Part shown: piece by piece, positions 2,441-47,353 of the stretch
Layout: each line of letters starts with the position of its first letter
Numbering within the stretch: position 1 is the stretch's first letter
Source: a bacterium
GTDB lineage: Bacteria > SAR324 > NAC60-12
Reading direction: 5' to 3'
NCBI GenBank assembly: GCA_965205865.1
Contig: CBDBHR010000010.1
Coordinates: 1-64,000 of the forward strand
Length of the DNA: 64,000 nt
Program-made: the position numbers and the translations under genes
Notes under the pieces: generated by a model
Databases searched by the model: none
What the model was told of the DNA's origin: nothing
Seen by the model: the letters and a program-made list of their open reading frames with translations, nothing else

Positions 2441-2844
2441 AAAAATGATTGCTGCCACAGGGTTAGATTGAATGAGCTTCACTGAACACCCACTAAGATT
2501 CACTCAGGGAAGAGGAAGAAAAAAGAAGAAGAGCAGGATCAAGGGAGAATAAAAGTGAGAAAGAAAATGGAAGAATCAAAATCAAGAATATTGAAAAAGA
2601 AAAACGATTGCTGTTGCACTTCAGACTAATGGGGAGTATTGTACGTTGATACTAACTTTTTTGCTGCACTTTGTCAGTGCTATTAACAAATAATCAAATT
2701 TTACTTTTATTTTATAATTGGGCATGATATTTAGAGGGATAAGTGAATAATCAAATTATTCTTATCTTACCAAATGTCCGTAAACTCTTTAAAAACCATA
2801 AGAAAATACTCAATTATTAATGAATCATCTTTTTAAAAAATCCC

Positions 2845-2874
2845 TTGATAATAAGGTGAATATGAGAGTAATCT
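2845..2874 (+). promoter_or_regulatory. Putative sigma70 promoter
   Basis: TTGATA-N18-TAATCT, conserved as TTGATA-N18-TAAACT at 10352-10381, with an A/T-rich upstream tract. Confidence 0.5.
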
Positions 2875-2880
2875 TAAACA

Positions 2881-2933
2881 CCCAGTTCCCAGTTCCCAGT
2901 TCCCAGTTCCCAGTTCCCAGTTCCCAGTTCCCA
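2881..2933 (+). repeat. Heptamer tandem repeat (CCCAGTT)7
   Basis: Seven perfect copies plus CCCA. Confidence 0.97.
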
Positions 2934-3035
2934 TATTAAGTTATCAGTTCCTTGTTTCCAGTTTCCACTCTCAAGCTCTAAGTCAAAAGCCCCAAGCAAC
3001 GAGTTCCCAATCCCAAGTTCTACCCCCTTATCTTA

Positions 3036-3251
3036 TCTCGACATCAGGAGAGATCCTTGAGATCCCTCGTTCTCCGTTCCGGGAACGGAACGGCAATGGG
3101 GAATTTGGAAAATCATCGGCGCCTGAGTGCGTCGGTTTATGGTCCATTGCCCCATCCTGGAGGCAATGGATCGGTTTTTTGATCACTTGAAAATGAAGGA
3201 GACCCAATGTGTAGAGCAATCGTCGAGAACGTGCTTTCGGGAACGAAAGCA
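3036..3251 (+). ncRNA. Candidate structured cis-regulatory leader RNA, copy 1
   Basis: Long hairpin capped by GGAA (3082-3085), a hairpin followed by a T-tract (3141-3180), and a hairpin with GGAA loop (3232-3251). All are conserved in copy 2. Confidence 0.45.
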
Positions 3252-3305
3252 GGTTTTAAAGCAATCCTAAATTTTGTTTTTAATCAAAAAGCAGAAAGGA
3301 AAAAG

Positions 3306-5077
3306 ATGGATAATCAAAAAGCAAATCAACCTTCAGTGCAACTCTGTTGGCCCTCATCCTGATGGTGACCGCATTTTGGGTCAGCCCAGCCGTCGGGGCT
3401 GAGAAAAAGATGGTCAAAGATCCGAGCACTGGTAAAATGGTGAGTGCACCTGAGTATGGCGGGACAAATAACCGCGTGGATGGGCGCCGGTTGGACTAAG
3501 GCGCCTAGTGACCCCTATTTCGGCGGCGCGCCGCACTTGATACTCTCGGGTGTGAATGAGAAGCTGGGCATCCCGAACTGGGCAATAGATAGAGACGTAT
3601 GGGACCTTACCGCGGCCTACTACCCTCTGTCGGTCATGACGGGGAGGCTGGCGGAAAGCTGGGAAACGCCCGACCCACTGACGTATGTCTTCAACATCCG
3701 CAAGGGCGTTCACTGGCACAAGAAGGCACCAATGAACGGCCGTCTCTTGACGGCGCAGGATGTTGAATGGAACTATCACCGGATGTTGGGTCTGGGCGAG
3801 TTCACCGACGCCGGACCGACTGCCTTTGCCGCCCAAGTCACCGGCATCCCATTCGAATCGGTAACGGCCACCGACGATTCGACGGTTGTGATGAAGCTGA
3901 AGGAGCCATTCCTTGATGCGCTGGGGATTATGCTCGGCCACAACTCTACTTTCATAGTGCCCCGCGAGGTCATCGAGCAATACGGCGACATGCAGGATTG
4001 GCGGAACGTGGTCGGCACCGGGCCCTTTGAGCTGACTGAGGTTGTCGATGGGAGCAGTTTCACCTATGTCAAGAATCCTGACTACTGGGGCTTCGACGAA
4101 AAGTATCCGGAGAACCGCCTGCCTTACGTTGACGAGGTAAGGGTACTTGAAATGGGAGAGGAAGCAACAATTATGGCGGCACTACGCTCAGGCAAGCTTG
4201 ATTACATACACTATCTCATTAATCTGGACGGGGTACTGAGCCTCAAGCGGACTAACCCCGAAATCGCGGTGCACACGATTCTGAATCGGTCGCAGAATTC
4301 TTTTGCTCCAAACCTGCGCGTGCCGCCCTTTGACGACATCAACGTGCGCCGGGCGATGCAGATGGCGCTGGACAACGAAACTGCGGTAGCCTACGTTCTG
4401 GAAGGGTGAGGCAGATGCGACACCTTTCGGGTGGCAAGGGGTGAAAGGGTATCACATCCCCTTCGAGGAGTGGGACGAAGAGGTCAAGCAATACTACAGG
4501 TATGACCCGGAAGCTGCCGAGAAGCTCCTCGATGAGGCTGGGTATCCGCGCGGCGCGGACGGCACGAGATTCGAGACCGTCTTGAGTCAGAGCCAATATC
4601 ATGTCTTGGACTTTTCAGAAATAGCGGTCGCCTACTGGGCTGAGATTGGCGTCGATGTTGAGATTGAGGTACTTACCAACGCCGAATTTCAGGAAAATGT
4701 ACGGGCGTACTAATAAAGGCATGATAAGTTCGATTGGGGGCAGCCAGGGTGACCCTGTCCGTTACGTATACCACCTTCGATCGGATTCAACATGGAACCG
4801 CTGGTTACAGCAGTGGCCTGAGTTGGACGCCATGGTTGACGCCGCTCTGACCGCGACTACCCATGAGGAGCAGCAGCGGCTGATTGTAGAGGCAGATATG
4901 TACGTAATAGAGAAGCACTGGCAGATATGGGGTCCCAGAAGTCCAACTTTCATGGTGGCCCAGCCGTGGCTCACAGGCTATAGCGGTGAAATTGGCCACT
5001 GGGCGGTAGGCGACCAGTGGACCACCCATTCCCGCCTCTGGATTGATAGTGAGCTGAAGAAAGAGATGGGGCATTAG
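3306..5077 (+). pseudogene. ABC transporter substrate-binding protein, family 5 (peptide/nickel), four frameshifts
   Basis: Signal peptide, PEYGG, LAESW, GTGPF, KNPDYW, PFDDINVRRAM, RLWID motifs across three ORFs; shifts at ~3320, ~3467, ~4390 and ~4708. Confidence 0.85.
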
Positions 5078-5086
5078 GGATTTTCC

Positions 5087-6088
5087 ATGAGAGCCTATAT
5101 CATCAGGCGGTTATTGCTCATCATCCCCACCCTGTTTATATTGAGCATCCTGGTCTTTCTATCGGTGCGCTTCCTCCCTGGCGATGTCATAGACGCAATG
5201 TTGGGTAAGCCGGAATTCATCGGTCTTGAGCTAGACCGAGAAGCTGTTGAGCGTATACTGGGACTAGACGTGCCCGTCTACGTGCAGTATGGACGCTGGA
5301 TAGGAGTGTTGCCGACCCCTGATTGGGTTACCGGTGAGTCCCACTTGAAAGGTATCCTCCAGGGCAGCCTTGGCCATTCACTGTTTGGCGACCATATGCC
5401 GGTAGAGGAGAGGATACTAGGTAGACTGCCGGTAACCGTTGAGCTTGGCGTCATGGCAATCGTCATCGGGCTGGTGATCGCCCTGCCGGTCGGCATCTAC
5501 TCGGCGATTCGCCAGGATACCGCCGCCGACTACGCGGGGCGCTCCTTCGCCATCGTTGGTCTGGCAACGCCTAACTTCTGGCTGGCCCTGATGGTCATGA
5601 TCTACCCCACCATCTGGTGGGGTTGGACGCCCCCGTTGGAGTGGGTTCCTTTCTCAAAAGACCCGCTGGGGAATCTCTGGGGGCTCTTCTTCCCCAGCCT
5701 GATTCTGGGAACGGCCTCCTCTGCCGCCACCATGCGGATGATGCGCACCATGATGCTGGAGGTGCTCCGGCAGGACTATATCCGCACCGCCTGGTCCAAG
5801 GGGCTCAAGGAGCGGGTCGTGATCATCCGGCACACCATCAAAAATGCCTTCATCCCGGTGGTCTCCCTGATCGGCCTGCAGTTGCCGATCCTGGTCGGGG
5901 GCGCGGTGATCATGGAGGTCATCTTCAACCTGCCGGGGATCGGTCGGCTCCTGCTGCTTGCCCTCGATGACCGAGACTACCCGATGGTCTCCGGAATCAA
6001 CCTGTTTTTCGCCACCGGGGTGGTGCTGCTCAATCTCCTCATCGACCTGATTTATCCCTATCTGGACCCGAGGGTGCGCTATGAGTGA
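5087..6088 (+). CDS. ABC transporter permease, DppB/OppB type
   Basis: MRAYIIRRLL start, DYIRTAWSKGL EAA loop, LDPRVRY end. Confidence 0.95.
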   Translation: MRAYIIRRLLLIIPTLFILSILVFLSVRFLPGDVIDAMLGKPEFIGLELDREAVERILGLDVPVYVQYGRWIGVLPTPDWVTGESHLKGILQGSLGHSLFGDHMPVEERILGRLPVTVELGVMAIVIGLVIALPVGIYSAIRQDTAADYAGRSFAIVGLATPNFWLALMVMIYPTIWWGWTPPLEWVPFSKDPLGNLWGLFFPSLILGTASSAATMRMMRTMMLEVLRQDYIRTAWSKGLKERVVIIRHTIKNAFIPVVSLIGLQLPILVGGAVIMEVIFNLPGIGRLLLLALDDRDYPMVSGINLFFATGVVLLNLLIDLIYPYLDPRVRYE

Positions 6089-7016
6089 ATCCAAGCGATG
6101 GGGCCGGTTTGCGGATTTCTGCATCAGGCTGTGGCAGGAGAAGCCGCTGGGGACGATCAGCGGGCTCATCATCCTGCTCTTGATTGTGGTGGCCATCTTT
6201 GCCGATGTGTTGACCCCGTACCCCTATGATAAACTCAACTTGGCCGACCGGCTGCAGGGAGCCTCCGCCCGGCATCTCCTGGGTACCGACCAATTGGGCC
6301 GAGACCTCCTGAGTCGCCTGATCTTCGGGGCTCGTATTTCGTTAATTGTGAGTCTGGCTGCAACCACAATCAATGTTCTCGTCGCGCTCCTGATCGGCGG
6401 AACGTCTGGATTCCTGGGGGGGAAAGTGGACCTGGCAGCGCAACGCTTTGTCGATGCCTGGATGGCTTTCCCGGGACTGCTGTTCTTGTTAACCATCATG
6501 TCGGTCGTGGGGCAGGGTTTGCTCCAGATCATCGTGGTCCTGGGGATCGCTGGCGGCATCGGGGGCTCCCGAGTCGTGCGAGGGGCGGTGATCGGCATCA
6601 AAGAGAATGACTATTTTCTGGCCGCCCGGGCTGTGGGCACCCCCACGGGTCAAATCCTGATCCGCCATGTATTGCCCAATATCATGGCACCGATCATCAT
6701 CGTCTTCTCGATCAACATTGGCGGGGTCATCATTGCCGAAGCATCGTTGAGCTTCCTGGGATTCGGACTGCCCATCAAGGTGCCTAGCTGGGGAGGGATG
6801 CTCAGCCGGGAAGGGCGCCGCTTCATGGAGCAAGCCCCCTGGCTGGCCTTCTGGCCGGGGCTTTTCCTGACGATTGTCGTCTACTCCCTCAACATGTTCG
6901 GCGACGCGGTGAGGGACCTGCTCGACCCCAGGCTACGAGGTGGCCAAGGCAGTTATGGCGCCACGGGGAAACGCAAAAGAGGTCTCCTCGCCCGGCTGAT
7001 CAATCCTTTTAACTGA
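6081..7016 (+). CDS. ABC transporter permease, DppC/OppC type
   Basis: HLLGTDQLGRD, RHVLPN, EASLSFLGFG, PSWG, GDAVRDLLDPR. Confidence 0.95.
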   Translation: MSESKRWGRFADFCIRLWQEKPLGTISGLIILLLIVVAIFADVLTPYPYDKLNLADRLQGASARHLLGTDQLGRDLLSRLIFGARISLIVSLAATTINVLVALLIGGTSGFLGGKVDLAAQRFVDAWMAFPGLLFLLTIMSVVGQGLLQIIVVLGIAGGIGGSRVVRGAVIGIKENDYFLAARAVGTPTGQILIRHVLPNIMAPIIIVFSINIGGVIIAEASLSFLGFGLPIKVPSWGGMLSREGRRFMEQAPWLAFWPGLFLTIVVYSLNMFGDAVRDLLDPRLRGGQGSYGATGKRKRGLLARLINPFN

Positions 7017-9530: not shown

Positions 9531-10387
9531 TAAATATTTTTATACAACCCTGTACACAAGCAAGCTCAAGCAACTTTTTGCGAAAGCTGCTTATTTTAAT
9601 GAAAATTTTTTTTAGTGAAGATCTCACGCGTGCCGAGTGCCCATCAGTCCTTGAAATGATTTGCTCTGCATCCCATGCTTTTCGCTCCTGGAAGGGCAGG
9701 ATTGCACCGTATTTTCAAGGACTGACACAGAGAGCAGCGAGGATCAAGTCCAGGATGAGACAAGCACTCGCCATCTGAGGAGTTAAGATGAGCAAAAAAA
9801 TCTATTGACATCCTTTGAATATTTTTATATTGTGTTGGAAGGATGCCTTCGCTATTTTCAAGGACTGACACAGATAGGAGCGAGGATCAAGTCCAGGATG
9901 AGACAAGCACTTGCCATTGAGGAGTTAAGATGAGCAAAAAAATCTATTGACATCCTCTGAATATTTTTATATTGAGAGGATATTGAAGGGGATAATGAAA
10001 TCTACCAGGATTTTGCCATCATCGTTCTTTTGTGATCGTTTTCAAGAAATCACCTTGGGCTGAAGGTTTTTAAGAATTTCTGCTTGTTTTTCGCTTTCGC
10101 TTTTGATAGATTTTAAAAAAGAAAATTGATTACTGCTACACGTTAGTTTGAATGAGCTTCACTGAACACCACTAAGATTCAGCCAGGAAAGAGGAAGAAA
10201 ATAGAAAAAAGAAGAGCAAGATCATGGGAGGATAAAAAAATAGGGAATAATCATAATCAAATTATTCTTATCTTCCCAAATGCCCGTAAATTATTTAAAT
10301 AACCATAAGAAAATACTCAATTATTAATGAATCATCTTTTTAAAAAATCCCTTGATAATGAGGTGGATATGAGAGTAAACTCAAATA

Positions 10388-10435
10388 CCCAGTTCCCAGT
10401 TCCCAGTTCCCAGTTCCCAGTTCCCAGTTCCCAGT
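10388..10435 (+). repeat. Heptamer tandem repeat (CCCAGTT)6 plus CCCAGT
   Basis: Direct reading of the sequence. Confidence 0.97.
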
Positions 10436-10494
10436 AATAAGTTCCAAGCAACAAGTCACAAGTCCCCAATCCCAAGTTCTACCCCCTTATATTA

Positions 10495-10711
10495 TCTCGA
10501 CATCAGGGAGAGATCCCTAAGATTCCTCGTTACCCGTTCCGGAAACGGAACGGCAATGGGGAATTTGGAAAATCATTGTCGCCTGAGTGCGTCGGTTTAT
10601 GGTTCATTGCCCAATCCTGGAGCCAATGAATCGGTTTTTTGATCACTTGAAAATGAAGGAGACCCAATGTGTAGAGCAATCGTCGAGAACATGCTTTCGG
10701 GGACGAAAGCA
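10495..10711 (+). ncRNA. Candidate structured cis-regulatory leader RNA, copy 2
   Basis: Same hairpins as 3036-3251, with loops GAAA and GGGA and one compensatory C-G to T-A pair. Confidence 0.45.
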
Positions 10712-10759
10712 GGCTTTAAATCAATTCTTAATTTTGAACATGCAATCGAAAGGAAAAAG

Positions 10760-12538
10760 ATGGAAAATCAAAAAAGCAAATCAACCTTCAGTGCAATCCT
10801 GCTGTCCCTCACCCTGATGGTGGCCGCCTTCTGGGTCAGTTCAGCCGTCGCAGCTGAGAAAAAGATGGTCAAAGACCCGGCCACCGGGGAGATGGTGACA
10901 GTACCGGAATATGGCGGGACAATCACCTTCGCCCGAAAAGAAGAGATGCCGGGTCCTGACACCGTGGTCTCTGGTCCCTGGGCACAAGCTTATGCCGCTG
11001 GTGTTTCAGAGAAGCTGGCCATCGCGGACTGGACAACGCCCAGAGACAAATTTGACTTCCAGTTTCACAGCCCTCCAACTCACTCGAAAGGGCAGCTGGC
11101 GGAAAGCTGGTCGCAGCCCGACCCCCTGACGTATATCGTCAAAGTCCGCCAGGGCGTGCATTGGCACAAGAAAGCCCCATTGAACGGTCGAGCTCTGACG
11201 GCCCAGGATATCGTGATCAACTATCACCGTATGTTGGGGATAGGCAGCGGTTTTACCGAACCGAGCGAATTTGCTACTACCTTCAAAGGGATGCAATTTG
11301 AATCGATCACGGCCTCCGACAAATCGACGGTTGTTTTTAAGCTGAAGGAGCCACACCTCGATGCGCTGGCTGCTATCCTCGATGGCGGCATCGCTTGGAT
11401 ATATCCCCCCGAGGTCATCAAGGAACAAGGGGACGTTACGGATTGGAAGAAACTGGTCGGCACCGGACCAATGATGCTGACTGACTGGACCAAGGGCAGC
11501 TCGATCACCTGGGAGAAGAATCCTGACTACTGGGGCACCGACGAAAAATACCCGCAGAACCGCTTGCCCTATATTGACCGGTTAAGGTCCCTGATTATGC
11601 CCGAAGTGGCGACGGCGCTGTCGGCACTGCGCACGTGTAAGGTTGATTACGTAGGCCCGATCGGCGCAGCTCAAATGAGGACTCTGGACCAGGTAGAGAG
11701 CCTCCAGCGGACTAACCCTGAACTCGTGATTTGGCCGTATACCAATCGGTCAGATAACGGTATTGGCATGAACGTTCAGATAAAGCCCTTTGACGACATC
11801 CGGGTGCGCCAGGCCATGCAGATGGCCATCAACCTCGAAGAAATTAACAATGCCTTCTACAAGGGTTTTGCAGATGTGATACCTCAGGGGCAGACACACC
11901 GGTCTTTTACAGAGGTTGTCACCCAATTTGAAGAGTGGCCCGAAGAGGTCAAGAAAGTCTTTGACTACGACCCGGAAGGTGCCGAAGCGTTGCTTGATGC
12001 GGCCGGGTATCCTCGCGGCGCCGACGGCATTAGATTTAAGACCGAGTTGATGCACCTCGAGCGCTACGATTTGAACTATGTCCAATTAGTCGTTTCATAC
12101 TGGGCTGATATTGGCATTGAGGTTGAGATTGAAGTACAGCCCGCCGCTGTCTTTGGCCCTAGAAGAAGTGAGAGGAATTTCGTAATGATCAATGCGGAAG
12201 CGGCCGGAAGGTGGTTCGTATTGCCACTGCAAATGCGCTATACGCCGAGCGCACCATGGAACAGCTCCAATGTCAACGACCCGGTTTATACAGCCAAGTT
12301 TGAAGCCGGCGGAAAGGCTACCACCATCGAGGAGTGGAACAGGATAGCTGGAGAGTTGAATCAGTATGCGATCGAGAAGTTCTGGACGATATGGGGTCCG
12401 ATGGCCCCACAGTATCTGGGGATCCAGCCGTGGGTCAAAGGTTTTAACGGTGAAACGATTTTGGGAAATGGTCAATATAACACCGTCTTCACCCGCCTCT
12501 GGATTGACCAGGACCTGAAGAAAGAAATGGGTCATTAG
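10760..12538 (+). CDS. ABC transporter substrate-binding protein, family 5 (alternative in-frame start at 10667)
   Basis: Signal peptide ending AVA-AE, PEYGG, LAESW, GTGP, KNPDYW, PFDDIRVRQAM, RLWID. Confidence 0.93.
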   Translation: MENQKSKSTFSAILLSLTLMVAAFWVSSAVAAEKKMVKDPATGEMVTVPEYGGTITFARKEEMPGPDTVVSGPWAQAYAAGVSEKLAIADWTTPRDKFDFQFHSPPTHSKGQLAESWSQPDPLTYIVKVRQGVHWHKKAPLNGRALTAQDIVINYHRMLGIGSGFTEPSEFATTFKGMQFESITASDKSTVVFKLKEPHLDALAAILDGGIAWIYPPEVIKEQGDVTDWKKLVGTGPMMLTDWTKGSSITWEKNPDYWGTDEKYPQNRLPYIDRLRSLIMPEVATALSALRTCKVDYVGPIGAAQMRTLDQVESLQRTNPELVIWPYTNRSDNGIGMNVQIKPFDDIRVRQAMQMAINLEEINNAFYKGFADVIPQGQTHRSFTEVVTQFEEWPEEVKKVFDYDPEGAEALLDAAGYPRGADGIRFKTELMHLERYDLNYVQLVVSYWADIGIEVEIEVQPAAVFGPRRSERNFVMINAEAAGRWFVLPLQMRYTPSAPWNSSNVNDPVYTAKFEAGGKATTIEEWNRIAGELNQYAIEKFWTIWGPMAPQYLGIQPWVKGFNGETILGNGQYNTVFTRLWIDQDLKKEMGH

Positions 12539-31682: not shown

Positions 31683-32988
31683 TCTTTCCGTAAATCAAAG
31701 ATTCCTCAAAATCATAATTTTTCCGTTTCTGCTGCGGCAATTGACTGGGGTTTGTTTCTTTGAAGCCATTTGCCGTAAATATATGGGAACTCTTTGTGGT
31801 GAGGGCAAATATCAGGGTTTGCTTGTCAAGCGCCGCCTGCTCTTGCGCAGCAACAATCAATTGTTTGCCAATACCTCGATTGCGGTATTCTTGTTTGACG
31901 GCGAGACTGGCAATCTCCATGGATTTGTTTTCTTCATAGAAAATCAACTCGCAACACCCAATTAAGCTTTCATCGATGCAAAAAACTAAAAAATTCTCAA
32001 TATGCTGTTCGAGATAAGTAGAACTTTTATGAACCAAGACGAGTTCGCTGACCGGTTTTACCAGGATCTGTTGGATGTGATGGATGTCAGGGAGCTTGGC
32101 AAAACGTATGTGTTCATAAGCGCTGTTGGTGAGCATAATCCCGGTTCCTGTAGAAGTGAGGATTTCTCCCAATATCGCGCCATCGATAGTGCTGTCCAGC
32201 CAATGACAGCGTTCCACACCTCGTTCACACGCTTCAATGAGAGCTTGCAACTGCAAACGGGGTTCACATGTCAAAAAGGTTGCCTGCCGGAGCCATTGCC
32301 GCATGGCTTCGGGTTTTGTTTCTCGAAGCGCATAAATTTCCTCAAAAGGGAAATTATCCCGGTGTTCCAGAATGATTAACTTACGTGCCCGCAAACGCGC
32401 AGCCACTTCCAAGGCGATCTGATTGGCTTCCAAAATCAGCAAGCGTCCATTTTCTCCAATTGCGAATGGTGCGATGATTGGAAGATAATGATGAGCGAAA
32501 GCCTCTTGCAAAGATTTAACATGAATGTCCTGCACTTTTCCAGTGCAGTGCGATGCGGAATCTTGAGAAAATGAGACTTTTTCTGCCCGCACGAAATGCC
32601 CGGAATATGGGAAAATATCGCGTCCATAACGGCTCAGTTTCGTAATCAGCTTCCAGTTGGTGCTGGCAATGGCTTGCTGGACAATGGGTAGGGATTCCAA
32701 GGGAACTCTAATCCGCCCTTCTACAATTTTCTCGTTATGTCCGTGAATTTGAAGGATCTCCCCGATCTGAGCATTGGCACCGTGCACAATGATGATCTTG
32801 ATGCCTATGCGATACAACAGGATCATATCATCCATAATACCGGACAAATTCTTCTGCCGGAGTGTGTTTCCACTGATTTTGACGACGAAAGTTTCGTTAT
32901 GAAATTCTTCTAAGTAGGGCAGAGCCCCTCGCAACCCATGAATGAAGTCTCTGAATTGTGACGCATCGGAGTCGGATTTTGCAGACAT
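31672..32988 (-). CDS. argA: Amino-acid N-acetyltransferase (N-acetylglutamate synthase)
   Basis: Amino-acid-kinase-like domain (IIVHGA, ACERGVERCH) plus GNAT domain (EIASLAV...RNRGIG, FALTT). Confidence 0.9.
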   Translation of the reverse strand: MSAKSDSDASQFRDFIHGLRGALPYLEEFHNETFVVKISGNTLRQKNLSGIMDDMILLYRIGIKIIIVHGANAQIGEILQIHGHNEKIVEGRIRVPLESLPIVQQAIASTNWKLITKLSRYGRDIFPYSGHFVRAEKVSFSQDSASHCTGKVQDIHVKSLQEAFAHHYLPIIAPFAIGENGRLLILEANQIALEVAARLRARKLIILEHRDNFPFEEIYALRETKPEAMRQWLRQATFLTCEPRLQLQALIEACERGVERCHWLDSTIDGAILGEILTSTGTGIMLTNSAYEHIRFAKLPDIHHIQQILVKPVSELVLVHKSSTYLEQHIENFLVFCIDESLIGCCELIFYEENKSMEIASLAVKQEYRNRGIGKQLIVAAQEQAALDKQTLIFALTTKSSHIFTANGFKETNPSQLPQQKRKNYDFEESLIYGKIIS

Positions 32989-33402
32989 GATTCATTTCAA
33001 GGATTGATGTGAATGTAAGAGTATACAGATTTTTGCGTCATTTCCATGTCCTGATATCCCAAGTTTTCAAGGATTTGCTGTGGGTGGGGTGTTACAAAAT
33101 GACACCCTGCAACCAACTCGTGGAAAATGGCGACAGAGGGCGTCATTCTTCGAGCAACCCGACAATTCGTAAAGTGTTTTGCTGCTATTATAGCAAACAT
33201 CGTATCTCTTTTCGAGAAGTTACAAAGTTAGTCTTTTGTTTGAGCTGGGTTTCCGGAAAACTTTTTATCAGAATTGAAATAATCTCACAAACCATGTATT
33301 TTTTATATTATCGAGTCATTTCCTGTAGACGGACTGGCTTGCTGTTATGCCTTTTTTTCAAGAAACGTCGTATTCCCAATATTGTTGACTGAACATCCAT
33401 CT

Positions 33403-34263
33403 ATGTTATCAAAATTCACAACCTATAAAATTTCAAGAAAATCATTGCATAAATTCAAAAAGCAAGGATTCAGCGAAGAGAGTCTCAACACCCTGGCTGC
33501 GCTTGAAGAAAAATATTTTCCTTCCATGGAACAATTCCTACTCTATTTGGAAAAGCTGCCCAACAACGTGGAAATCCTGGAACGGAAAAACATGATCCTC
33601 AAACACACACGCAGCTATTTCCGTATGGATGGATGGATCACCCACAAATCAATTCGTGAATGGGTAGAAGCCTTGATATTTGCGGTAGTGGTGGCCATGA
33701 TTGTCCGCACTTTTCTCTTTGCTCCCTTTCGTATTCCATCCGGATCGATGATCCCTACCATTCAAATTGGGGATCAAATCTTTGCCACGATGTTTAGTTA
33801 TGGGATTCCGATTCCATTTACCGATATCAAATTACTGCGCCAACCGATCCAACGGGGAGACATTTTGATCTTCCCCTCCCCGCCGAACCCTTCCATTGAT
33901 TTTATCAAGAGAACGATTGCTCTGGAAGGAGAAGTGATTGAAATCCGCAATGACGAAGTCTACATCAATGATAAATTGTTACCGGAACCCTATGCTTTTT
34001 TCGACCCTGACAGTCGATCCGCCTCCCGCTTGCGGAATGTGAGCAACTTCGGGCCAATTACCGTGCCCAAAGGGCATATTCTGGCAATGGGAGACAACCG
34101 CTATAACAGTCATGATGGGCGTTTTTGGGGTTTTGTGAATATTAAGAAGGTCAAAGGAAAAGGTCAGCTGGTTTATTGGTCCAAGGACCACCGTAAAGGT
34201 CTGTTAGGTTTTTTCGATTTACAATCCTATCGTGTGAATCGTATTTTACATTTCTTGGAGTGA
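33403..34263 (+). CDS. lepB: Signal peptidase I with an N-terminal ~63-aa extra module
   Basis: [12 protein letters not shown] (catalytic Ser), DFIKR (catalytic Lys), [15 protein letters not shown]. Confidence 0.95.
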
Positions 34264-34312
34264 ACTCCTTTGCCAAAGGCCTCAATTCGGTTGGTTCCAC
34301 ATCGATGAAATT

Positions 34313-35182
34313 ATGAAAAATATTGCGCGCAATGATCCTTGTCCCTGCGGGAGCGGGAAAAAATATAAAAAATGTCATCTCAAATTTGACCGCAAGAACC
34401 AACAGTGGGGCAAAAGCAACCGGTCTGGGATTATCGTCAAAAACCCGGAACAGGTGGTGGGGATTCGTCAAAGTTGTCAGCTGACCAGCAAAATTCTGGA
34501 TTTGCTGGAAGAGCAGATCCACCCGGGTATGACAACGAATGATATCAATGAGTGGGTTCATAATTACACCATTACGCATGGAGCTTATCCTGCACCCTTG
34601 AATTATCGTGGGTTTCCTAAAAGTGTTTGCACGTCACTCAACGATGTCATTTGTCATGGCATTCCCGACACAACCGTCATCCGTGATGGGGATATTTTAA
34701 ATGTAGATGTGACCTGTATCCTCAACGGTTATTATGGCGATTCGAATCGCATGTTTTGCATTGGGGAGGTGTCGGATGAGGCCAGCGCGTTGATTCGTAT
34801 TTCCAAAGAATGCCTGGAGTTGGGCATCGAGGAGGTCAAGCCCTTCAACACGATAGGGGATATCGGACATGTCATTCAACAGCATGCGGAACAGCATGGT
34901 TTTTCAGTGGTACGGGATTTTTGCGGACATGGCGTTGGCATCGAATTTCATGAAGATCCTCAAGTTCCCCACTATGGTGATCCTAAAAGCGGTCCCGTGT
35001 TGGTACCCAATATGGTTTTCACAATCGAGCCGATGATCAATATAGGGCGCTACGAAAGCCGGATTTTGGCGGACCGATGGACTGCGGTTACCCTCGATGG
35101 TTCCCTCTCCGCCCAATGGGAGCACACAGTCCTTGTCACGCAATCCGGTGTGGAGGTTCTAACGGCATCCTCATCGAATTGA
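34313..35182 (+). CDS. map: Methionine aminopeptidase with an N-terminal SEC-C motif
   Basis: [48 protein letters not shown]. Confidence 0.96.
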
Positions 35183-35264
35183 GATTTTTCCATGCCCTTT
35201 GCTATTGGCAATTCTACTCTGCCGCTTAGACAAACTGCTACATCACCCTTGGTTAAAGCAATAA

Positions 35265-35675
35265 ATGAAACAGAAAATTGTAAGCTGCGTTCTCATTTTG
35301 ACCTTTTTATTAGTAGCATTCGTGCTTAACGTCGCAGAAAAATCTGCCAGTCTCATAACCATTTCGGCATTGGAATCGGCTGCATTGATTGAGAAGAACA
35401 AAAACAATCCCGATTTCATAATTTTGGATGTGCGCACTGCCGAAGAATACGACGCGGTCCGTCTTATTGATGCAGAGATGTTGGATTTCCATTCTGCAAC
35501 CTTTACCGACGCGTTGAAGGAGTTGGATAAGGAAAAAACCTATCTCATTTACTGCCGGAGCAGGGTCCGTAGTAAAAAAATTCTCAGACTGATGGAAGAA
35601 ATGGGGTTTGAAATGGGTTACCATATGTTGGGAGGAATTTTGGCATGGCAAGCAGAGAATTTTCCGACCATCTGA
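35265..35675 (+). CDS. Rhodanese-like domain protein
   Basis: ILDVRTAEEY, IYCRS..RS, LGGILAW. Confidence 0.85.
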   Translation: MKQKIVSCVLILTFLLVAFVLNVAEKSASLITISALESAALIEKNKNNPDFIILDVRTAEEYDAVRLIDAEMLDFHSATFTDALKELDKEKTYLIYCRSRVRSKKILRLMEEMGFEMGYHMLGGILAWQAENFPTI

Positions 35676-35713
35676 AAATTGACGAGAGCAGTTCTATTCT
35701 AAGACAAATGGAG

Positions 35714-36163
35714 CTAAGGTCGTTTGGAAGCAATTTTGATTTTGCGAATGATTGACTGATGCAAGACAAGCACGGGCGGTCCTTGCGGGCGTCCCCAAAT
35801 CCAGGTGGCCAGGATCAATCCACCAAAAATCGTGTAACCCATACTGAAGACCCAGGGTTCTGCCTGGTAGAAGACGGTTTTGTGCAGCCAATAGGCAACG
35901 AAACTCCCGGAATAGGAAATCTTATCTGCCATCCCGCGTAGCTCATGTTCCCAGATCGTCAAAGGGCAAATAATACCCATCCAACTCTGGATGACGACAA
36001 TGCCGATTGCCAGTAAATGCGCGAGCCTGAACCAGAAACTACGTACCCAACGCCATTGTCTCAGCAAGCCCATCACAATCAATATCAGTCCAAACACCAC
36101 AAATGCAATGAAGCTCGTGTGAAGAATCAAAACAAAATCAGCAAGCAAAGAGTATGGATTCAT
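35714..36163 (-). CDS. DUF2784-like membrane protein
   Basis: LADFVLILH, FRLAHL, CPLTIWE. Confidence 0.8.
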   Translation of the reverse strand: MNPYSLLADFVLILHTSFIAFVVFGLILIVMGLLRQWRWVRSFWFRLAHLLAIGIVVIQSWMGIICPLTIWEHELRGMADKISYSGSFVAYWLHKTVFYQAEPWVFSMGYTIFGGLILATWIWGRPQGPPVLVLHQSIIRKIKIASKRP

Positions 36164-36215
36164 CTTGATTGGTCACTGTTTGAAAAAAGAACACTTCCCC
36201 CACATTTTCTATGCT

Positions 36216-37364
36216 TCAGGGGACGATTTGGTAAATGTTTCCCATCAACCCCACCACATAGACTTCTCCAGCTTCATCTTCTCCGAAACTGGAAATATTG
36301 ATGTTTGTATTTATCAATAGACTCAGGTCCAGCAGGCGACCATTTATTTGGGTCAATCCCCAGATTTTGCCTGATCCAAAATCCCCGTAAAGGTAGTTGC
36401 CCTGCAAAGATGGGATCGCCATCCCACGGTAGACGAAACCGCCTGTGACCGAGTAGCCTTCGCTGTGGTCATATTCAACTAAGGGACGCTGCAACCCCCT
36501 CTGGGAGCAACCGAATGACGGTGCATAGCAATGATCGCCTTCCATGATATTCCATCCGTAGTTTTTCCCTTTTTCAATCAGATTGATCTCTTCATAACGA
36601 TTTTGTCCCACATCGCCCGCATAAAGTTCACCGGTCAAACGATCGAAGCTGAAACGCCAGGGATTTCGCAGCCCATAAGCCCAAATCTCAGGAAGGATAT
36701 TTTGAAGGCCCACGAAGGGATTATCTTTAGGGACGGCATAAGCGGTTTTACCGCTTTCACGGTTGATATCGATACGTAGAATGGCTCCATGCAGAGTTCT
36801 TAAATTCTGCCCATTGCCCAAAGGATCTCCGCCTGCGCCGCCATCTCCCATGCCAATGTACAAGTAGCCATCGGGACCGAAGGCAAGTTGACCTCCATTG
36901 TGATTGCTGTATGGCTGTTCAATCTCAAGAATGCGAACTTCACTGTCTGCCATCGCCTGGTTCGGATTTTGGGAAAGCGCACGAAATTTGGAAATGACGG
37001 TACGCCGGGGCAGTCCGACTGTATAATTGACAAAGAAAATGCCATTTTGCAAGTATTGTGGATGAAATGCCAGGGAAAGCAAGCCTTCCTCATTTCCCCA
37101 GCTGAGGACTCGTTTGCGGATATCCAAAAAAACATGGGAGACCGTCCGTCCTGTGGCGGGGTCTCGGTCAATGACCTGAATCCTCCCTTCCTGCTCCACC
37201 AAGAAGATCCGGCCGCTTCCATCCCAGGAGGCCGTTAGGTGAACAGGGCGATCTAACTCCACAGTTTGAAATACCTGCTTCAAACCCAGGGCCCATGGAC
37301 CAGGATAAAAGCTGCAAGAGATGGAGAACCCCACCAATATGATTCCCTGAACGATGATTTTCAT
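36216..37364 (-). CDS. PQQ-dependent sugar dehydrogenase (glucose/sorbosone family)
   Basis: NHNGGQLAFGPDGYLY, AYGLRNPWRFSFD, SFGED. Confidence 0.92.
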   Translation of the reverse strand: MKIIVQGIILVGFSISCSFYPGPWALGLKQVFQTVELDRPVHLTASWDGSGRIFLVEQEGRIQVIDRDPATGRTVSHVFLDIRKRVLSWGNEEGLLSLAFHPQYLQNGIFFVNYTVGLPRRTVISKFRALSQNPNQAMADSEVRILEIEQPYSNHNGGQLAFGPDGYLYIGMGDGGAGGDPLGNGQNLRTLHGAILRIDINRESGKTAYAVPKDNPFVGLQNILPEIWAYGLRNPWRFSFDRLTGELYAGDVGQNRYEEINLIEKGKNYGWNIMEGDHCYAPSFGCSQRGLQRPLVEYDHSEGYSVTGGFVYRGMAIPSLQGNYLYGDFGSGKIWGLTQINGRLLDLSLLINTNINISSFGEDEAGEVYVVGLMGNIYQIVP

Positions 37365-37664
37365 ACCACTTTCATTGCAAAGGTGACCAGGAATTTTCCT
37401 ATCATACCATTTCTCACTTCAAATACCATCAATTCCCAACCCTTTTCTCCATAAAAACAGCCTTGCCCACACAAAGCGGATTCTAATCTTCGCAATGTTT
37501 TTTCCCCTTAAGGCGAATCTATGGTGCCTTAACGAAAACCTCATCCTCTTCATTTTTTTCTGGAATCGACAAATCTTACACGATAATATCGATTGATCAC
37601 ATCATCACGGATCAAAAGTAAAAACCCGCGATAATCTCGTGAAGAAAAAGACAGAAAGTAAATA

Positions 37665-38039
37665 ATGCCACAAGCAGCAAAGGAGATTTGGGTTACAATA
37701 GGCAGCGCGGACGAAATCAATATCGACCAAATCAAGGCTGTTCAAGTTGGACCGGTACGAATCATTCTCGTACGAACAGAAACAGGTTATTTTGCCCTGG
37801 ACAGCCTCTGTCCTCACCAAGGAGTGCCTTTGAAAGACGGCACCGTCTGCAAGGGCGACAGAATTCGTTGTGTCTGGCATGGCTATTTGTTTGATCTGAA
37901 TACTGGTAAAGGACATGGCAATGAGTACGAAGTGGAGACCTTCCAAATTCGAGAAAGTTATGGCACCATTGAAGTATTGTTGCCAAAGCAAATGCGCAGG
38001 TGGGACTCTCTGTTAAGTGGTTGCAAAGCCCTTCTCTGA
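37665..38039 (+). CDS. Rieske 2Fe-2S ferredoxin
   Basis: CPH and CVWH ligand motifs, FDLNTG. Confidence 0.9.
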   Translation: MPQAAKEIWVTIGSADEINIDQIKAVQVGPVRIILVRTETGYFALDSLCPHQGVPLKDGTVCKGDRIRCVWHGYLFDLNTGKGHGNEYEVETFQIRESYGTIEVLLPKQMRRWDSLLSGCKALL

Positions 38040-38053
38040 ACGATATCGAGACT

Positions 38054-38653
38054 ATGAACTCGCAGAATCCGGACAGAACTCGCTGGAACAAAAAATATTC
38101 TCGGAAAGGGATGGAAAGCTGGGAATCTCGTCCTTCAGACTGGTTGCGAAGCCATCATTCTCTTTTGAATGCGCAAAGGCGAGGAGCAGCGTTGGATGTG
38201 GCCTGTGGCAATGGGCGCAATTCATTTTTTTTGGCTGCCATGGGCTTTGAAGTGGATGCTGCCGACATTTCGGATGTGGCAGTCGTTTGGTTGCAGCAGC
38301 AAGTTGCTCAAAAGGTTGTGTCCATCCAACCCATTCAGATGGATTTTGAAAACAATCTCCTTGCCAAGGAAAAATATCAAGTAATCCTTTGTTTCAATTA
38401 CCTGGAGCGTGGTCTTTTCCCTGTCCTGCAAGACGCATTGCAGGCTGGAGGACTTTTGTTTTTTGAGACTGCCTATCGTGACGACATCACCATCTTGGGT
38501 AGCAGCATGAATCCACGGTATGTGTTGGATTACAATGAATTGCTGCGGGAATTTTCGGATCTGCGTATTCTTGAATATCAAGAAAAAATCGTTTATGTTG
38601 CGGAGCTTACTAAAAAGAAAGCCTTGGCCAGTATAGTGGCTCGCAAAATTTAA
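38054..38653 (+). CDS. Class I SAM-dependent methyltransferase (TehB-like)
   Basis: [11 protein letters not shown] motif I, FNYLER. Confidence 0.85.
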
Positions 38654-38673
38654 TCGACTGCGAGGAGAGCGAA

Positions 38674-39405
38674 ATGCCATTCCCCCACCCATTGAGACGC
38701 GCCACAAGGCTTGGTTGGATTCTGATATTCGCTTTTACAGGCTTGTGGGGAAATCCATTATGGAGCCAGGAGTGGCAGTCTGCGCGTCAGGAGATGGTAC
38801 GGGTTCAACTCGAGAACCGGGGCATTCAGGATCCTGCTGTCCTACAAACCATGCGGGAAGTACCCCGACATTTATTTGTTCCGAAAGAACTCGAATTCGT
38901 GGCCTATTCAGACCGTCCTTTACCAATAGGTTCAGGACAGACGATCAGCCAACCCTATGTGGTGGCCTTGATGACAGAATTGCTCGATCTGCGCCCAGGG
39001 ATGAAAGTTTTGGAAATCGGCACGGGATCAGCGTATCAAGCAGCAGTCCTTGCGACCTTGAATATGGAAGTCTATTCAATTGAGATCATTCCGGAATTGG
39101 CCAGAGGAGCGATAGCTCGCTTACAAAGCCTGCAATTTCCGGTTTCCGTCAAAAATGCAGACGGTTATTACGGCTGGTCGGAGCATGCCCCTTTCGACCG
39201 TATCATCATCACCGCCGCCGCCAATCATGTACCCCGCCCCCTCCTCAACCAATTGAAACCGGGCGGAAAACTCGTGCTTCCCCTGGGACCGACCCTGTTT
39301 TATCAAACATTGACGATTGTCACTGTGGATGAAGACGGTCAAACCTCGGTTGAATATTCCATCGATGTCCGCTTTGTTCCCATGACTGGCAAAGTCCGGG
39401 AATGA
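38674..39405 (+). CDS. pcm: Protein-L-isoaspartate O-methyltransferase
   Basis: [36 protein letters not shown]. Confidence 0.93.
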
Positions 39406-39410
39406 GCCCC

Positions 39411-41753: not shown

Positions 41754-42157
41754 TGTTCGCGTTATTGACAATCTATAGACTTCTCGAAAATTTTCTTATC
41801 AGGAAAATAGGAGTCCGCCCCTCATCGCCAGGACCGGGACTGTCCTTCCATTTAATTGTTTGCCGGGAGGCTACAGTTGCGTGATTGGGTTATTTTTGTT
41901 TTACTAAAACAGCATCAATTTATATAGTACCTAAATCCTGCAATTAGATGACAATCAAACATGGAAATGGTAATATACTCAAATAGTTAACACCAGAATC
42001 AACATTTTAAGAGTAAATCAAATCAAAACTATCAAAGAAGTATGGAATCGTTCCCACGTTTTATGTAAGATTTTGTCGGTGGTCGGCATGCCGATTCGAC
42101 CGCTACGCGGTGGCAAGGGACGCAAAACGACGGACGAGGAGTCAGAGGAGAAAAAAC

Positions 42158-43000
42158 ATGCGCGCAACCTATATTTCAACCGCAGATCTGGCCCCCCATC
42201 TCCAGGACCCGGATTGGGTCGTGATCGACTGTCGATTCGTACTCGATGACAAGGAACAGGGACGGCGGGACTACCACAAAGGACACATTCCTCAAGCGCT
42301 ATATGCGCATCTGGAAGAAGACCTGTCGGCTCCTGTGGTTCCACAAAAAACCGGACGGCACCCTTTACCGGATCCTTTTGATTTTTCACGAATTTGTTCA
42401 TACTGGGGAATTGATGGCAAAGTCCAGGTCGTGGTTTATGACGACGCGATCGGTGCCTTTGCTGCCCGCCTGTGGTGGATGCTACGTTGGCTGGGTCATC
42501 ATCAGGTTGCCGTATTGGATGGAGGATGGCAGCAATGGCAGAAAGAGAATCGCCCGGTTTCCGATGATGTTCCCAGTCGGACACCACGGTCTTTTTTGCC
42601 CCTGTTGCGCTCCTGCTTGCATTTGAATGCGAATCAAGTCCTGAAATTACTGGAGGATCCCGATTACAGGCTATTGGATGCCCGTGGAGCGGATCGCTAT
42701 CGTGGAGAAAATGAAACCATCGATCCGGTGGCAGGACACATTCCCCATGCCCTTAGCGCTCCTTATATGGAAAATGCAAGCCCCGACGGCAGGGTTTTGC
42801 TTCCGGCTGCCCTGCAAAAACGCTTTCTTGCCATGTTGGGTCACGTGAAGTCTGAGCAAACTGTTTGTTATTGTGGTTCCGGAGTGACGGCATGCCACAA
42901 TCTTTTGGCCATGGCACACGCAGGTTTGGGAGATGGAAAATTATATGCCGGTTCCTGGAGTGATTGGATCACGGATCCCAAGCGTCCCATTGCCTGTTAA
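42158..43000 (+). CDS. sseA: Sulfurtransferase (3-mercaptopyruvate/thiosulfate, tandem rhodanese)
   Basis: GHIP twice, GRHPLP, ARLWW, YCGSGVTAC, YAGSWSDW. Confidence 0.9.
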   Translation: MRATYISTADLAPHLQDPDWVVIDCRFVLDDKEQGRRDYHKGHIPQALYAHLEEDLSAPVVPQKTGRHPLPDPFDFSRICSYWGIDGKVQVVVYDDAIGAFAARLWWMLRWLGHHQVAVLDGGWQQWQKENRPVSDDVPSRTPRSFLPLLRSCLHLNANQVLKLLEDPDYRLLDARGADRYRGENETIDPVAGHIPHALSAPYMENASPDGRVLLPAALQKRFLAMLGHVKSEQTVCYCGSGVTACHNLLAMAHAGLGDGKLYAGSWSDWITDPKRPIAC

Positions 43001-43165
43001 AATCCGCAAAAATTGGACTTGTCTTTTTTTCATGCTAAACTACCGACATATTATGAATCGTGGTGTTGACGAAACACGGCACTTGGAGCAAATCGCCGGT
43101 TCACGGCAGTAATTCAACCATCACTGGAAAACACCAGCAGTAAGTCATTTAGAAAAGATAGATTC

Positions 43166-46729: not shown

Positions 46730-46738
46730 AACAGTCAA

Positions 46739-47059
46739 TCAGTGACTGCGCTTTCCTCCTCCCAAGCATTCCGGCGTGTCTCGAATGGCATGTGCGGAGT
46801 GTCCCCATTGAGTGGGTGTTTTGGCTTGAATGGATAAAGCGTGGATAGGACCTGCCAGTTCTTCCGCCAGCACGTGATTGATGAGTTGATGCTGCTGTAA
46901 AAGGCTTTTTTGCTCAAATTTTGCCGAGACAATGACAACCTTGAAATGCGATTCTGACCCTGGAGGAACATTGTGTTGGTTGCTCTCATTTTGCACTTGC
47001 AGAAAAACGGGGTCGAATGCCGATTGTAGTTTTTTTTCTATTCTTCCTTGAACTTGCAT
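46739..47059 (-). CDS. bolA: BolA-family protein
   Basis: NESNQHNVPPGSESHFKV, IHALSI, PECLGG. Confidence 0.92.
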   Translation of the reverse strand: MQVQGRIEKKLQSAFDPVFLQVQNESNQHNVPPGSESHFKVVIVSAKFEQKSLLQQHQLINHVLAEELAGPIHALSIQAKTPTQWGHSAHAIRDTPECLGGGKRSH

Positions 47060-47255
47060 AATTCTCTCACTTTGAATGGTTACCCTTTGGAACAGACTAC
47101 TGATTTTGCATATATATACAAGAAGAAAACGCATTTGCTCAGCATCACACCTTGTTTTTGACGTGGAAAAACGTAAAATTTCCTGGTTCTCTTTGCAAAG
47201 AAGAGTCGATTCTCTCGAACCAACTTGAATCATGATTCTTTTATTTTTCCTGAGT

Positions 47256-47331
47256 GCTCCTGTAGTTCAACTGGATAAAACAACGGATTCCTAATCCGTA
47301 GTTCTGGGTTCGAGTCCCGGTGGGAGCACCA
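47256..47331 (+). tRNA. tRNA-Arg(CCT)
   Basis: Cloverleaf with anticodon arm ACGGA-TTCCTAA-TCCGT, GGTTCGA T-loop and CCA end. Confidence 0.93.
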
Positions 47332-47353
47332 ATAATTTTAATCGGAAAATCCA

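Follow-up and report, generated by a model that had tools for sequence, protein, structure and literature searches.

The window analysed here is a stretch of 64,000 nucleotides (nt), positions 1 to 64,000 of contig CBDBHR010000010.1 (assembly GCA_965205865.1), from a bacterium of the SAR324 lineage NAC60-12. It holds two copies of a structured leader, copy 1 at 3036-3251 and copy 2 at 10495-10711, each lying ahead of a gene for a family-5 solute-binding protein. An earlier note on this DNA had taken the leader for a ligand-responsive terminator that controls transporter operons. The analysis places it elsewhere, very probably as one part of a shared, repeat-built cassette and not as a metabolite riboswitch. 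The features of the two copies, including a Shine-Dalgarno (SD) sequence and two successive start codons (AUG1 and AUG2), are as follows.

2845-2874, forward strand: copy 1 predicted promoter, with the -35 element TTGATA at 2845-2850, an 18-nt spacer ending in a conserved ATGAGAG, and the -10 element TAATCT at 2869-2874; the start site is likewise a prediction
2881-2929, forward strand: copy 1 heptamer array, (CCCAGTT)x7, beginning about 7 nt past the -10 element
3036-3136, forward strand: copy 1 variable part of the 5' untranslated region (5'UTR), with TCTCGAC at 3036-3042, the rod apex at 3074-3093 and hairpin X at 3115-3136
3141-3180, forward strand: copy 1 hairpin ii, terminator-like, at 3141-3172, then GG, then T6 at 3175-3180; -23.2 kcal/mol including the 3' flank
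3196-3209, forward strand: copy 1 SD AAGGAG at 3196-3201 and AUG1 at 3207-3209; this SD-AUG1 motif occurs 29 times in the genome
3207-3362, forward strand: copy 1 extension frame of 51 codons, containing GTCGAGA at 3222-3228 and hairpin iv at 3232-3251; out of frame with AUG2 at 3305-3307
10352-10381, forward strand: copy 2 predicted promoter, with TTGATA at 10352-10357, an 18-nt spacer and TAAACT at 10376-10381
10388-10429, forward strand: copy 2 heptamer array, (CCCAGTT)x6
10495-10596, forward strand: copy 2 variable part of the 5'UTR (TCTCGAC at 10495-10501, rod, hairpin X)
10601-10640, forward strand: copy 2 hairpin ii at 10601-10632 and T6 at 10635-10640; -14.5 kcal/mol including the 3' flank
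10656-10669, forward strand: copy 2 SD AAGGAG at 10656-10661 and AUG1 at 10667-10669
10667-10759, forward strand: copy 2 in-frame extension of 31 codons, MCRAIVENMLSGTKAGFKSILNFEHAIERKK, containing hairpin iv at 10692-10711; the whole open reading frame (ORF) is 10667-12538, 623 amino acids (aa)
10760-12538, forward strand: copy 2 family-5 solute-binding protein from AUG2 (PF00496, E 5.3e-64), with a classical signal peptide

All four structural elements that had been described for the leader, namely the rod, hairpin ii with its T-run, the TCTCGAC/GTCGAGA pair and hairpin iv, are found in both copies. The rod apex of copy 1 consists of CCGTTCCG (3074-3081), the loop GGAA and CGGAACGG (3086-3093), and its loop becomes GAAA in copy 2. 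The C-G to T-A double change in hairpin ii between the window copies is genuine. Hairpin iv of copy 1 reads TGCTTTCG-GGAA-CGAAAGCA. Against dinucleotide shuffles, the folds of both stretches are unusually stable: copy 1 reaches -105.4 kcal/mol (z -5.56) and copy 2 reaches -88.1 kcal/mol (z -3.19), and in neither case did any of the 200 shuffles do as well. Both copies are enclosed by a longer duplication (about 2745-3420 versus about 10250-10880, 89% mean column identity), which also includes the promoter, the (CCCAGTT)n run and the 5' end of the gene. The binding-protein gene of copy 1 (3305-5077) is a pseudogene, which is returned in four tblastn pieces in frames 1, 2, 3 and 1. The two permease genes behind it (5087-6088 and 6081-7016) appear intact.

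The lack of a match to known classes, which the earlier note had stated for the glycine, SAM-I, TPP, cobalamin, c-di-AMP and T-box consensus, is borne out. When Rfam 15 is run on the window, two tRNAs alone reach the gathering score. A permissive scan of 2600-3500 (E up to 10) gives 4 chance-level matches of 14.5-20.1 bits, against cut-offs of 41-70, and nine related loci give 0 matches. A stable multi-hairpin fold, a terminator-like hairpin in the 5'UTR, GNRA-type loops on the rod and on hairpin iv, and the lack of a known family, which would allow a new one, are the points in favour of a metabolite riboswitch. According to this proposal, the rod and its neighbouring hairpins would be an aptamer that switches a terminator at hairpin ii. 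Its fate depends on how the leader is distributed and how it varies.

The leader is not confined to the window. The bacterium's own genome (G000) is a metagenome assembly of 4.74 Mb in 30 contigs, and a search of it with window positions 3030-3260 (231 nt) returns 66 matches. Thus, the pair ahead of family-5 genes that was first noted amounts to 2 of 66, one of them before a broken gene. Near-full copies (at least 190 of the 231 nt) number 20, at 82-100% identity, and include both window copies; the partial matches fall into modules that correspond to query positions 1-104, 110-231 and 182-231. The family-5 set of this genome is very large, with 135 tblastn pieces of 300 aa or more found by the copy 2 protein. 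Of 140 family-5 tblastn hits, 48 have leader modules upstream, invariably in one orientation, and the last module stops 22-73 nt (mostly 38-47 nt) short of the start of the hit. Altogether, more than 40 diverged paralogues are preceded by the element. Another 22 module matches have no assignable family-5 hit of at least 250 aa, and several of these lie ahead of truncated genes. No other gene family is found behind the cassette in this genome: the ORFs of at least 200 aa that carry its signal peptides are family-5-like in 29 cases out of 29. Leaders that are nearly identical stand before proteins that share only 45-70% identity with each other. When 18 loci are aligned, mean pairwise identity is 0.94-0.95 from hairpin ii through hairpin iv versus 0.3-0.8 in the coding region; the one 30-nt bin holding the SD-ATG motif is biased because the loci were picked by that motif. 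The most conserved non-coding block of the cassette is the one that holds hairpin ii.

The anatomy of the cassette was obtained by lining up the 420 nt before AUG1 in 29 copies. It is 0.45-0.6 kb long, and the leader as first noted is its middle part. From 5' to 3', the cassette comprises a predicted sigma-70 promoter, a microsatellite of heptamers, between one and three related hairpins, hairpin ii with U6-8, SD and AUG1, a frame of 31-70 codons, and a signal peptide. An A-rich stretch precedes the promoter. A sigma-70-type promoter (at least 5 of 6 positions of TTGACA, a spacer of 16-18, TAnnnT) is predicted at 47 of the 59 anchor hits in the genome. The distance from the predicted promoter to hairpin ii is about 290-330 nt in this genome and about 190 nt in G023, a genome of another genus in the family.

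The tandem heptamer array starts about 7-10 nt past the -10 element, at or beside the predicted start site. All 22 genomic arrays of at least three CCCAGTT units (3-15 units) fall in the cassette; 21 of them are followed by the leader motif, and the remaining one by the cassette's TTCTACCCCCTTAT stretch. Other units are also used, namely CACCCGG, CCGACAC, AAGTCCC, CCATATC, CCAGCTC and CAGTTCA, in arrays of 3-21 units, and at least eight different C-rich units are found in heptamer arrays genome-wide. By a looser count that accepts any heptamer unit, 30 of the 59 anchor hits have an array of 3-21 units that starts within 25 nt of the -10 element.

Between the array and hairpin ii lies a mid-region, of which two or more unrelated classes exist. 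In class A it contains the rod and a further hairpin (3115-3136 in copy 1), and in class G/T a different stretch of about 90 nt. The rod itself is composed of heptamer-like units of GTTCC type, and extra units destroy it in 6 of 20 full copies. In some copies, other repeat families are inserted within the cassette. A G+C-rich insert of 25-95 nt was seen directly past the TCTCGAC-type motif at five places in G000 (C28:378149, C28:509648, C29:644064, C30:644372 and C24:41566), and in one of the leaders with such an insert the motif reads TCCCGAC. The part common to all copies consists of hairpin ii, the U-tract, AAGGAG and ATG. Hairpin ii is followed by UUUUUUGAUCACUUGAAAAUGA and then by a perfect AAGGAG, with a spacing to the SD that is fixed in 37 of 37 distinct cores. 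The SD and AUG lie about 25 nt downstream of hairpin ii and its U-tract.

The helices were examined by shuffle tests of pairing, with 500 shuffles each, in sequences that are close kin. Among the 37 distinct cores, 93.4% of the cells pair versus 92.9% in shuffles (10/500 as high), and four pairs are changed on both sides (1/500 as high). With 59 distinct cores combined, again 93.4% of the cells pair, against 92.8 +/- 0.1 in shuffles (0/500 as high), and four pairs show changes on both sides (1/500 as high). All five measures beat nearly all of the shuffles (0-2/500), and partners slid out of register pair at 26-52% versus 93.4% for the structure itself. In the 28 cores from metagenomes and G023, the covariation score is also above shuffles (9/500 as high).

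Individual helices fare differently. Among 22 full-length leaders, two pairs of hairpin ii and one of hairpin iv show double changes. Covariation gives a weak but consistent signal for these two hairpins and none for the pairing of TCTCGAC with GTCGAGA. Both partners of that pairing, which had been offered as a source of alternative folds, are present, but no double change accompanies them and one pair is broken in 6 of the 22 copies. Hairpin X is 97.7% paired, with changes that are one-sided and keep the pair. The outer rod is invariant, and the rod apex, with 83.9% of its cells paired, is broken in 6-7 of the 22 copies. In hairpin ii, 53 of the 59 cores have G-U as the second pair. In hairpin iv, UA goes to UG in 19 cores and GC to GU in 24. 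This one-sided wobble pattern is more in keeping with a sense-strand RNA helix than with a DNA palindrome. Thus, hairpins ii and iv appear modestly supported as RNA helices, and the rod and the TCTCGAC/GTCGAGA pairing do not. A helix between the U-tract and the first SD, similar to a 'fourU' element, was considered and set aside; it is 95.2% paired, but nearly all of its pairs are invariant and one pair is unpaired in 12 of 37 copies.

Downstream of the U-tract, the 'leader' is an open frame from the ATG at 3207 or 10667, 5 nt past the perfect AAGGAG. This frame runs for 620-673 codons in 19 of 29 copies, through AUG2 and the signal peptide into the binding protein; a second SD and AUG2 follow the extension in frame. 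At many loci, the hairpin iv unit is present twice in tandem with the frame kept. Genes without the MCR start have other in-frame starts (MKLIIR, MKFIIR, MKRIIR, MERIIR) before the same hairpin iv unit. In the genome of the sister species, the frame is open in 8 of 8 motif-carrying loci (36 loci examined). In metagenome contigs, it is open in 23 of 28 assessable cases, with stops in five, and two more run off the contig. Of 83 unique 60-nt units, one has a stop in frame 0 and 32 have one in frame 1; in the consensus, single changes that would make a stop number 6 for frame 0 and 15 for frame 1. As the copies share ancestry, the comparison does not amount to a formal test. The long form has been called in 59 public proteins, all of them PF00496.

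Translation of the extension from AUG1 is, on this pattern, probable. Initiation by ribosomes at AUG1 would oblige the frame to stay open, with its letters constrained at the level of the nucleic acid; use of AUG1 would explain an open frame despite a barely constrained peptide. Third positions inside the hairpin iv stem are almost invariant. With AUG1 probably in use, hairpin iv and the 3' partner of the TCTCGAC pairing would lie in translated sequence.

Protein-like selection on the extension was looked for, and its pattern was not seen. Two other candidate frames were rejected. A 28-codon frame across hairpin ii, from an ATG in GGCAATGG to a TGA past the T-run, is found only in class A leaders and is absent from class G and from G023. 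A minus-strand ORF at 3028-3219 has no initiation codon, and many copies shorten it to 9-35 codons. Neither PF13018 nor any other N-terminal sorting model matches the extension (Pfam E up to 10; NCBIfam E up to 1). At four places in G000 (C26:249940, C26:257851, C27:112217 and C30:885768), other binding-protein genes have a further type of N-terminal frame ahead of the signal peptide, with repeated units such as IIKKLVASFVGLNPAG and RFAPCRVNRSQNPQF. Another dispersed repeat, TGCTGTCAGCAACGAGAGCA, which surfaced as by-catch of the hairpin iv pattern search, lies inside an identical 31-codon frame, MSMLSATRADSLFSMLKFEWFSMKSWTILIF, at 24 places in G000, e.g. C6:2599, C23:14373 and C30:1015.

Outside its own genome, the element is narrowly distributed. 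Of the 45 genomes of the family, three match a covariance model of the core strongly, the own genome 64 times, the sister species 47 times and G023 7 times. Five further genomes give single weak matches (E 1.3e-4 to 8e-3). The exact 28-nt motif of hairpin ii is found in only one other record of a collection of 185,579 species, and a search with the hairpin iv motif returns 30 marine metagenome contigs. The core is about 80% identical between genera. The leaders of G023 and of the metagenome contigs have a TTGAC(A/G)-17-TAnnnT promoter and three to four tandem, related hairpin units of about 38 nt, the last of which is followed by U6-8, SD, ATG, the extension and the signal peptide. The leader of these relatives folds at z -7.9.

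In the metagenome contigs, the same leader, extension and signal peptide are found on SBP_bac_5, SBP_bac_1 (L170) and Peripla_BP_4 (L174) proteins. Since leader and signal peptide stand on three unrelated families of binding proteins, the cassette is portable, with the export signal included. In G023, the hairpin and U-tract also occur before genes for a short-chain dehydrogenase and a Gfo/Idh/MocA-type oxidoreductase (products read by eye). At one G023 locus (L126, G023:C84), the extension is a separate 39-codon frame (MLRSILDNVLAGMKASFK...) whose stop overlaps the start of a gene that was judged by eye to be a TauD-like dioxygenase, as in a coupled upstream ORF. Conversely, binding proteins 43-68% identical to those of the window occur without the extension motif in assemblies labelled Spirochaetia and Dehalococcoidia (L061-L063, L079, L082), which suggests that binding-protein genes may be exchanged without the cassette.

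Comparison with the sister genome gives the clearest view of turnover. Five clear orthologue pairs have coding DNA that is 93-97% identical, against 72-81% for the next-best partner. Within these pairs, 50-nt windows of the coding region are 96-100% identical, and similarity is far lower in the cassette. All three pairs that can be aligned at the heptamer array disagree there in unit as well as in number; for example, about 10-15 copies of CACCCGG stand opposite CCAGTTC or CCCAGTT, and no array stands opposite nine units. The mid-region class is swapped in two of the five pairs, the whole upstream region is replaced in one of the five, and one orthologue copy has lost the 5' arm of hairpin iv. 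As the cassette differs between orthologues, the paralogous leaders are alike by exchange and not because the loci are frozen. Concerted evolution within each genome was also considered and was not upheld, as a tree of 37 cores interleaves the two genomes (8 label changes versus about 10 in shuffles). That tree is uninformative because the genomes are only about 3-7% apart in orthologous coding DNA.

Taken together, the reading favoured here, by a narrow margin over an even chance, is that of a recombining, portable cassette for expression and export, in which hairpin ii and its U-tract serve as a shared attenuator. A common strong promoter would drive a transcript that must pass hairpin ii and the U-tract. 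On the sense RNA, these would act as a common attenuator, either a leaky terminator or one under a trans-acting factor. The level of the whole transporter set would then depend on read-through, which could be constitutive and partial or could be governed by a trans-acting protein or RNA recognising the repeated hairpins. Recombination would shuffle the cassette among diverged binding-protein genes, so that the whole set gets a common promoter, leader and export signal. What the sequence itself shows is the layout of the cassette, how many copies exist and how they are linked to binding-protein genes, the conserved hairpin with its U-tract ahead of the SD, a frame kept open, portability and fast reshuffling; where transcription starts, use of AUG1 and termination at the U-tract are inferred. 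What stands of the original proposal is the structured leader, with its terminator-like hairpin and U-tract, lying between promoter and start codon; the sensing of a ligand is not supported.

Termination itself is advanced more tentatively. Hairpin ii has a stem of 9-10 pairs, or up to 13 with bulges, followed by GG and T6-8, and it may act as a terminator or attenuator, though the case for this falls somewhat short of even. Terminator-like sites in 32001-52000 number 30 against 21.2 +/- 4.3 expected, a weak excess. The RNA evidence comes from four metatranscriptome runs in the form of short contigs, which cannot show starts, ends or levels. RNA-library contigs covering 10593-10706 and 10604-10713 bridge the T-run of copy 2, and read-through forms thus probably exist.

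Several observations weigh against the attenuator cassette or its parts. A simple terminator scan of 2600-3400 called 0 sites and left hairpin ii uncalled; the hairpin has a loop of 12-14 nt or else a longer, bulged stem, few G-C pairs, and 2 nt before the U-tract. A conserved antiterminator was looked for and not found: the GGCAATGG/CCATTGCC alternative is a partial fold in copy 1 and is not present in copy 2, and no equivalent was seen in class G or G023 leaders. One of the RNA contigs also covers DNA upstream of the promoter, so carry-over of DNA is possible. With regard to the helices, covariation is weak because the sequences are 92% alike, the combined alignment of 59 cores was fitted to the model, and double changes in the 28 metagenome and G023 cores (three pairs) are not above shuffles (103/500). 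The AUG1 frame is interrupted in 10 of 29 copies, five of which precede intact-looking genes according to our own sorting against tblastn hits, and AUG1 is ATT in 2 of 30 metagenome contigs. The extension is without a protein-like pattern, with differences at codon positions 1, 2 and 3 of 179, 205 and 166 and a synonymous share of changes of 0.159 versus 0.267 expected. Finally, the own genome is a metagenome assembly in 30 contigs, and so common a repeat could cause local mis-joins.

The main rival, although rather improbable, is that there is no termination at all. The role of hairpin ii would then be to protect the mRNA, perhaps once it has been processed, while the U/A-rich sequence that leads to the SD would serve as a platform for binding and enhance translation, so that the cassette would be no more than a strong leader for expression. 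Ribosomal protein S1 binds leaders rich in A and U, and mRNAs such as ompA are stabilised by 5' hairpins. The hairpin followed by UUUUUUGAUCACUUGAAAAUGA and a perfect AAGGAG, the constant 25-nt distance to the SD in all 37 distinct cores, the poor quality of hairpin ii as a canonical terminator and the RNA-library contigs that bridge the U-tract would all suit a stabiliser. It sits badly with G023, where the hairpin and U-tract also occur with no SD within 100-250 nt (L129, L050), and with the U6-8 directly past the hairpin, which is the classic layout of a terminator.

A bolder proposal, and an unlikely one, is that of a contingency 'rheostat', in which some 30-50 uptake genes would each carry a hypermutable repeat at the start of the transcript and share one attenuator hairpin. 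The repeats would be heptamer arrays in the lineage of the window and poly-G tracts in the promoter spacers of pelagic relatives. Within a clonal population, cells would then differ in transporter repertoire, with the overall level set by one trans-acting factor, and the cassette, including its signal peptide, would move between unrelated binding-protein genes by recombination. Tracts of G8-G10 were observed within the -35/-10 spacer in the pelagic relatives L152, L164, L171, L181 and L166, three of these five contigs being near-identical. In L153, a close homologue, the G tract is interrupted; the layout is that of phase-variable promoters.

Somewhat less likely still is a selfish or neutral modular repeat similar to the BOX or Correia elements, which happens to carry a promoter and whose structure has no regulatory role. 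It would account for the modular build with variable unit numbers, a turnover between orthologues that is faster than in the adjoining coding region, the narrow and patchy distribution and the insertion of other repeat families inside. It is opposed by the single orientation and fixed distance 5' of binding-protein genes in the own genome, by a core that aligns between genera at a distance where intergenic DNA would not normally do so, by the frame that is kept open and by the strand-specific pattern of wobbles.

There is little to recommend a multi-copy small RNA gene, running from the promoter to the U-tract (about 190-330 nt), with binding-protein mRNA made by read-through only. The unit does stand alone in G023, 100-250 nt from unrelated genes (L129, L050), and the strong promoter, the three to four stable hairpins (z -7.9) and the U-tract would agree with it, but every copy in the own genome is fused 25 nt upstream of SD and AUG, and no conserved single-stranded seed region is visible. 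As for the metabolite riboswitch, it is the least probable of all, because the stretch upstream of hairpin ii (90 nt, in two or more unrelated classes) is swapped even between orthologues of close species, leaving no conserved aptamer, because the element stands before more than 40 diverged paralogues and on three binding-protein families, to which one transported ligand does not fit, and because heptamer expansions break the rod, the number of hairpin units differs in relatives, the TCTCGAC/GTCGAGA pairing is without covariation and hairpin iv sits in an open frame.

Among the nearest known systems are the leader attenuators that employ an intrinsic terminator. These include the trp, pyr and bgl types, ANTAR targets and the expression platforms of riboswitches, controlled by proteins, tRNAs or ligands. 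The cassette shares with them a sense-strand hairpin and U-tract between promoter and SD, with further hairpins before it. It differs in that neither a sensor nor an antiterminator is conserved, in its dozens of copies per genome, in a hairpin with a large or bulged loop and a 2-nt spacer, and in the lack of an Rfam match. With respect to riboswitches in particular, no curated aptamer model matches, no conserved sensor domain is seen, and the genes served are not those of one ligand or pathway.

In its construction, the cassette resembles the BOX elements of pneumococcus, which are built as boxA-boxB(n)-boxC, and the Correia elements of Neisseria; such elements lie in 5' regions and are co-transcribed. 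They too are multi-copy, hairpin-forming, lineage-specific modules of variable number that can bring promoter or terminator signals. Unlike them, the cassette has a fixed orientation and distance to one gene class and extends into a start codon, an extension and a signal peptide. No terminal inverted repeats or target duplications were seen in it, though without a formal test for them. Similarly, the upstream homology box (UHB) family of Borrelia burgdorferi, comprising the ospE/ospF-related genes for host-interaction lipoproteins, has a conserved upstream region on diverged genes for secreted proteins that is reshuffled by recombination, and here such a region stands on three binding-protein families. 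The differences are that the cargo here consists of nutrient-binding proteins and that the cassette has structured hairpins and a terminator-like element.

The heptamer arrays have a counterpart in the promoters of hmw1A and hmw2A of Haemophilus influenzae, where heptanucleotide repeats are present and more repeats are reported to go generally with less transcript (PMC2424069). Both systems have a 7-bp array between promoter and gene, with a number that differs between close relatives. In the present case, there are about 30 loci per genome, and the unit sequence also varies. Two marks of a simple-sequence contingency locus, short tandem repeats in the 5' region and a repeat number that varies at one locus between close relatives, are found here. 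The extended signal peptide region (ESPR, PF13018) of autotransporters likewise places an extra N-terminal segment before a classical signal peptide; here, there is no PF13018 match, the peptide is barely constrained, the cargo class is different, and translation from AUG1 is a prediction. The cassette would function in the manner of a terminator-type leader; its construction is that of a modular dispersed repeat, and its spread would follow that of the shared upstream regions of secreted-protein families. Nothing on this leader was found in literature searches on SAR324, sponges, and solute-binding proteins or ABC transporters, and the passages of PMC9031357 that were consulted do not treat leaders.

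The case carries a warning for those who hunt RNA motifs, as a multi-hairpin fold, GNRA loops and one compensatory change mimicked a riboswitch, when their source was a repeat-built and partly translated leader. The core of hairpin and U-tract spans about 120 nt and offers a clearly delimited candidate for a new cis-regulatory RNA, open to tests with reporters. Uncultured marine bacteria of this kind carry very large sets of transporter binding proteins. If the favoured reading is true, new transporters could be wired into one regulon in a simple manner, by a portable cassette that brings them a promoter, a structured leader, a start codon and an export signal. The heptamer arrays just past the -10 element could, in addition, make uptake genes individually variable in expression, a property known so far mostly from the surface antigens of pathogens.

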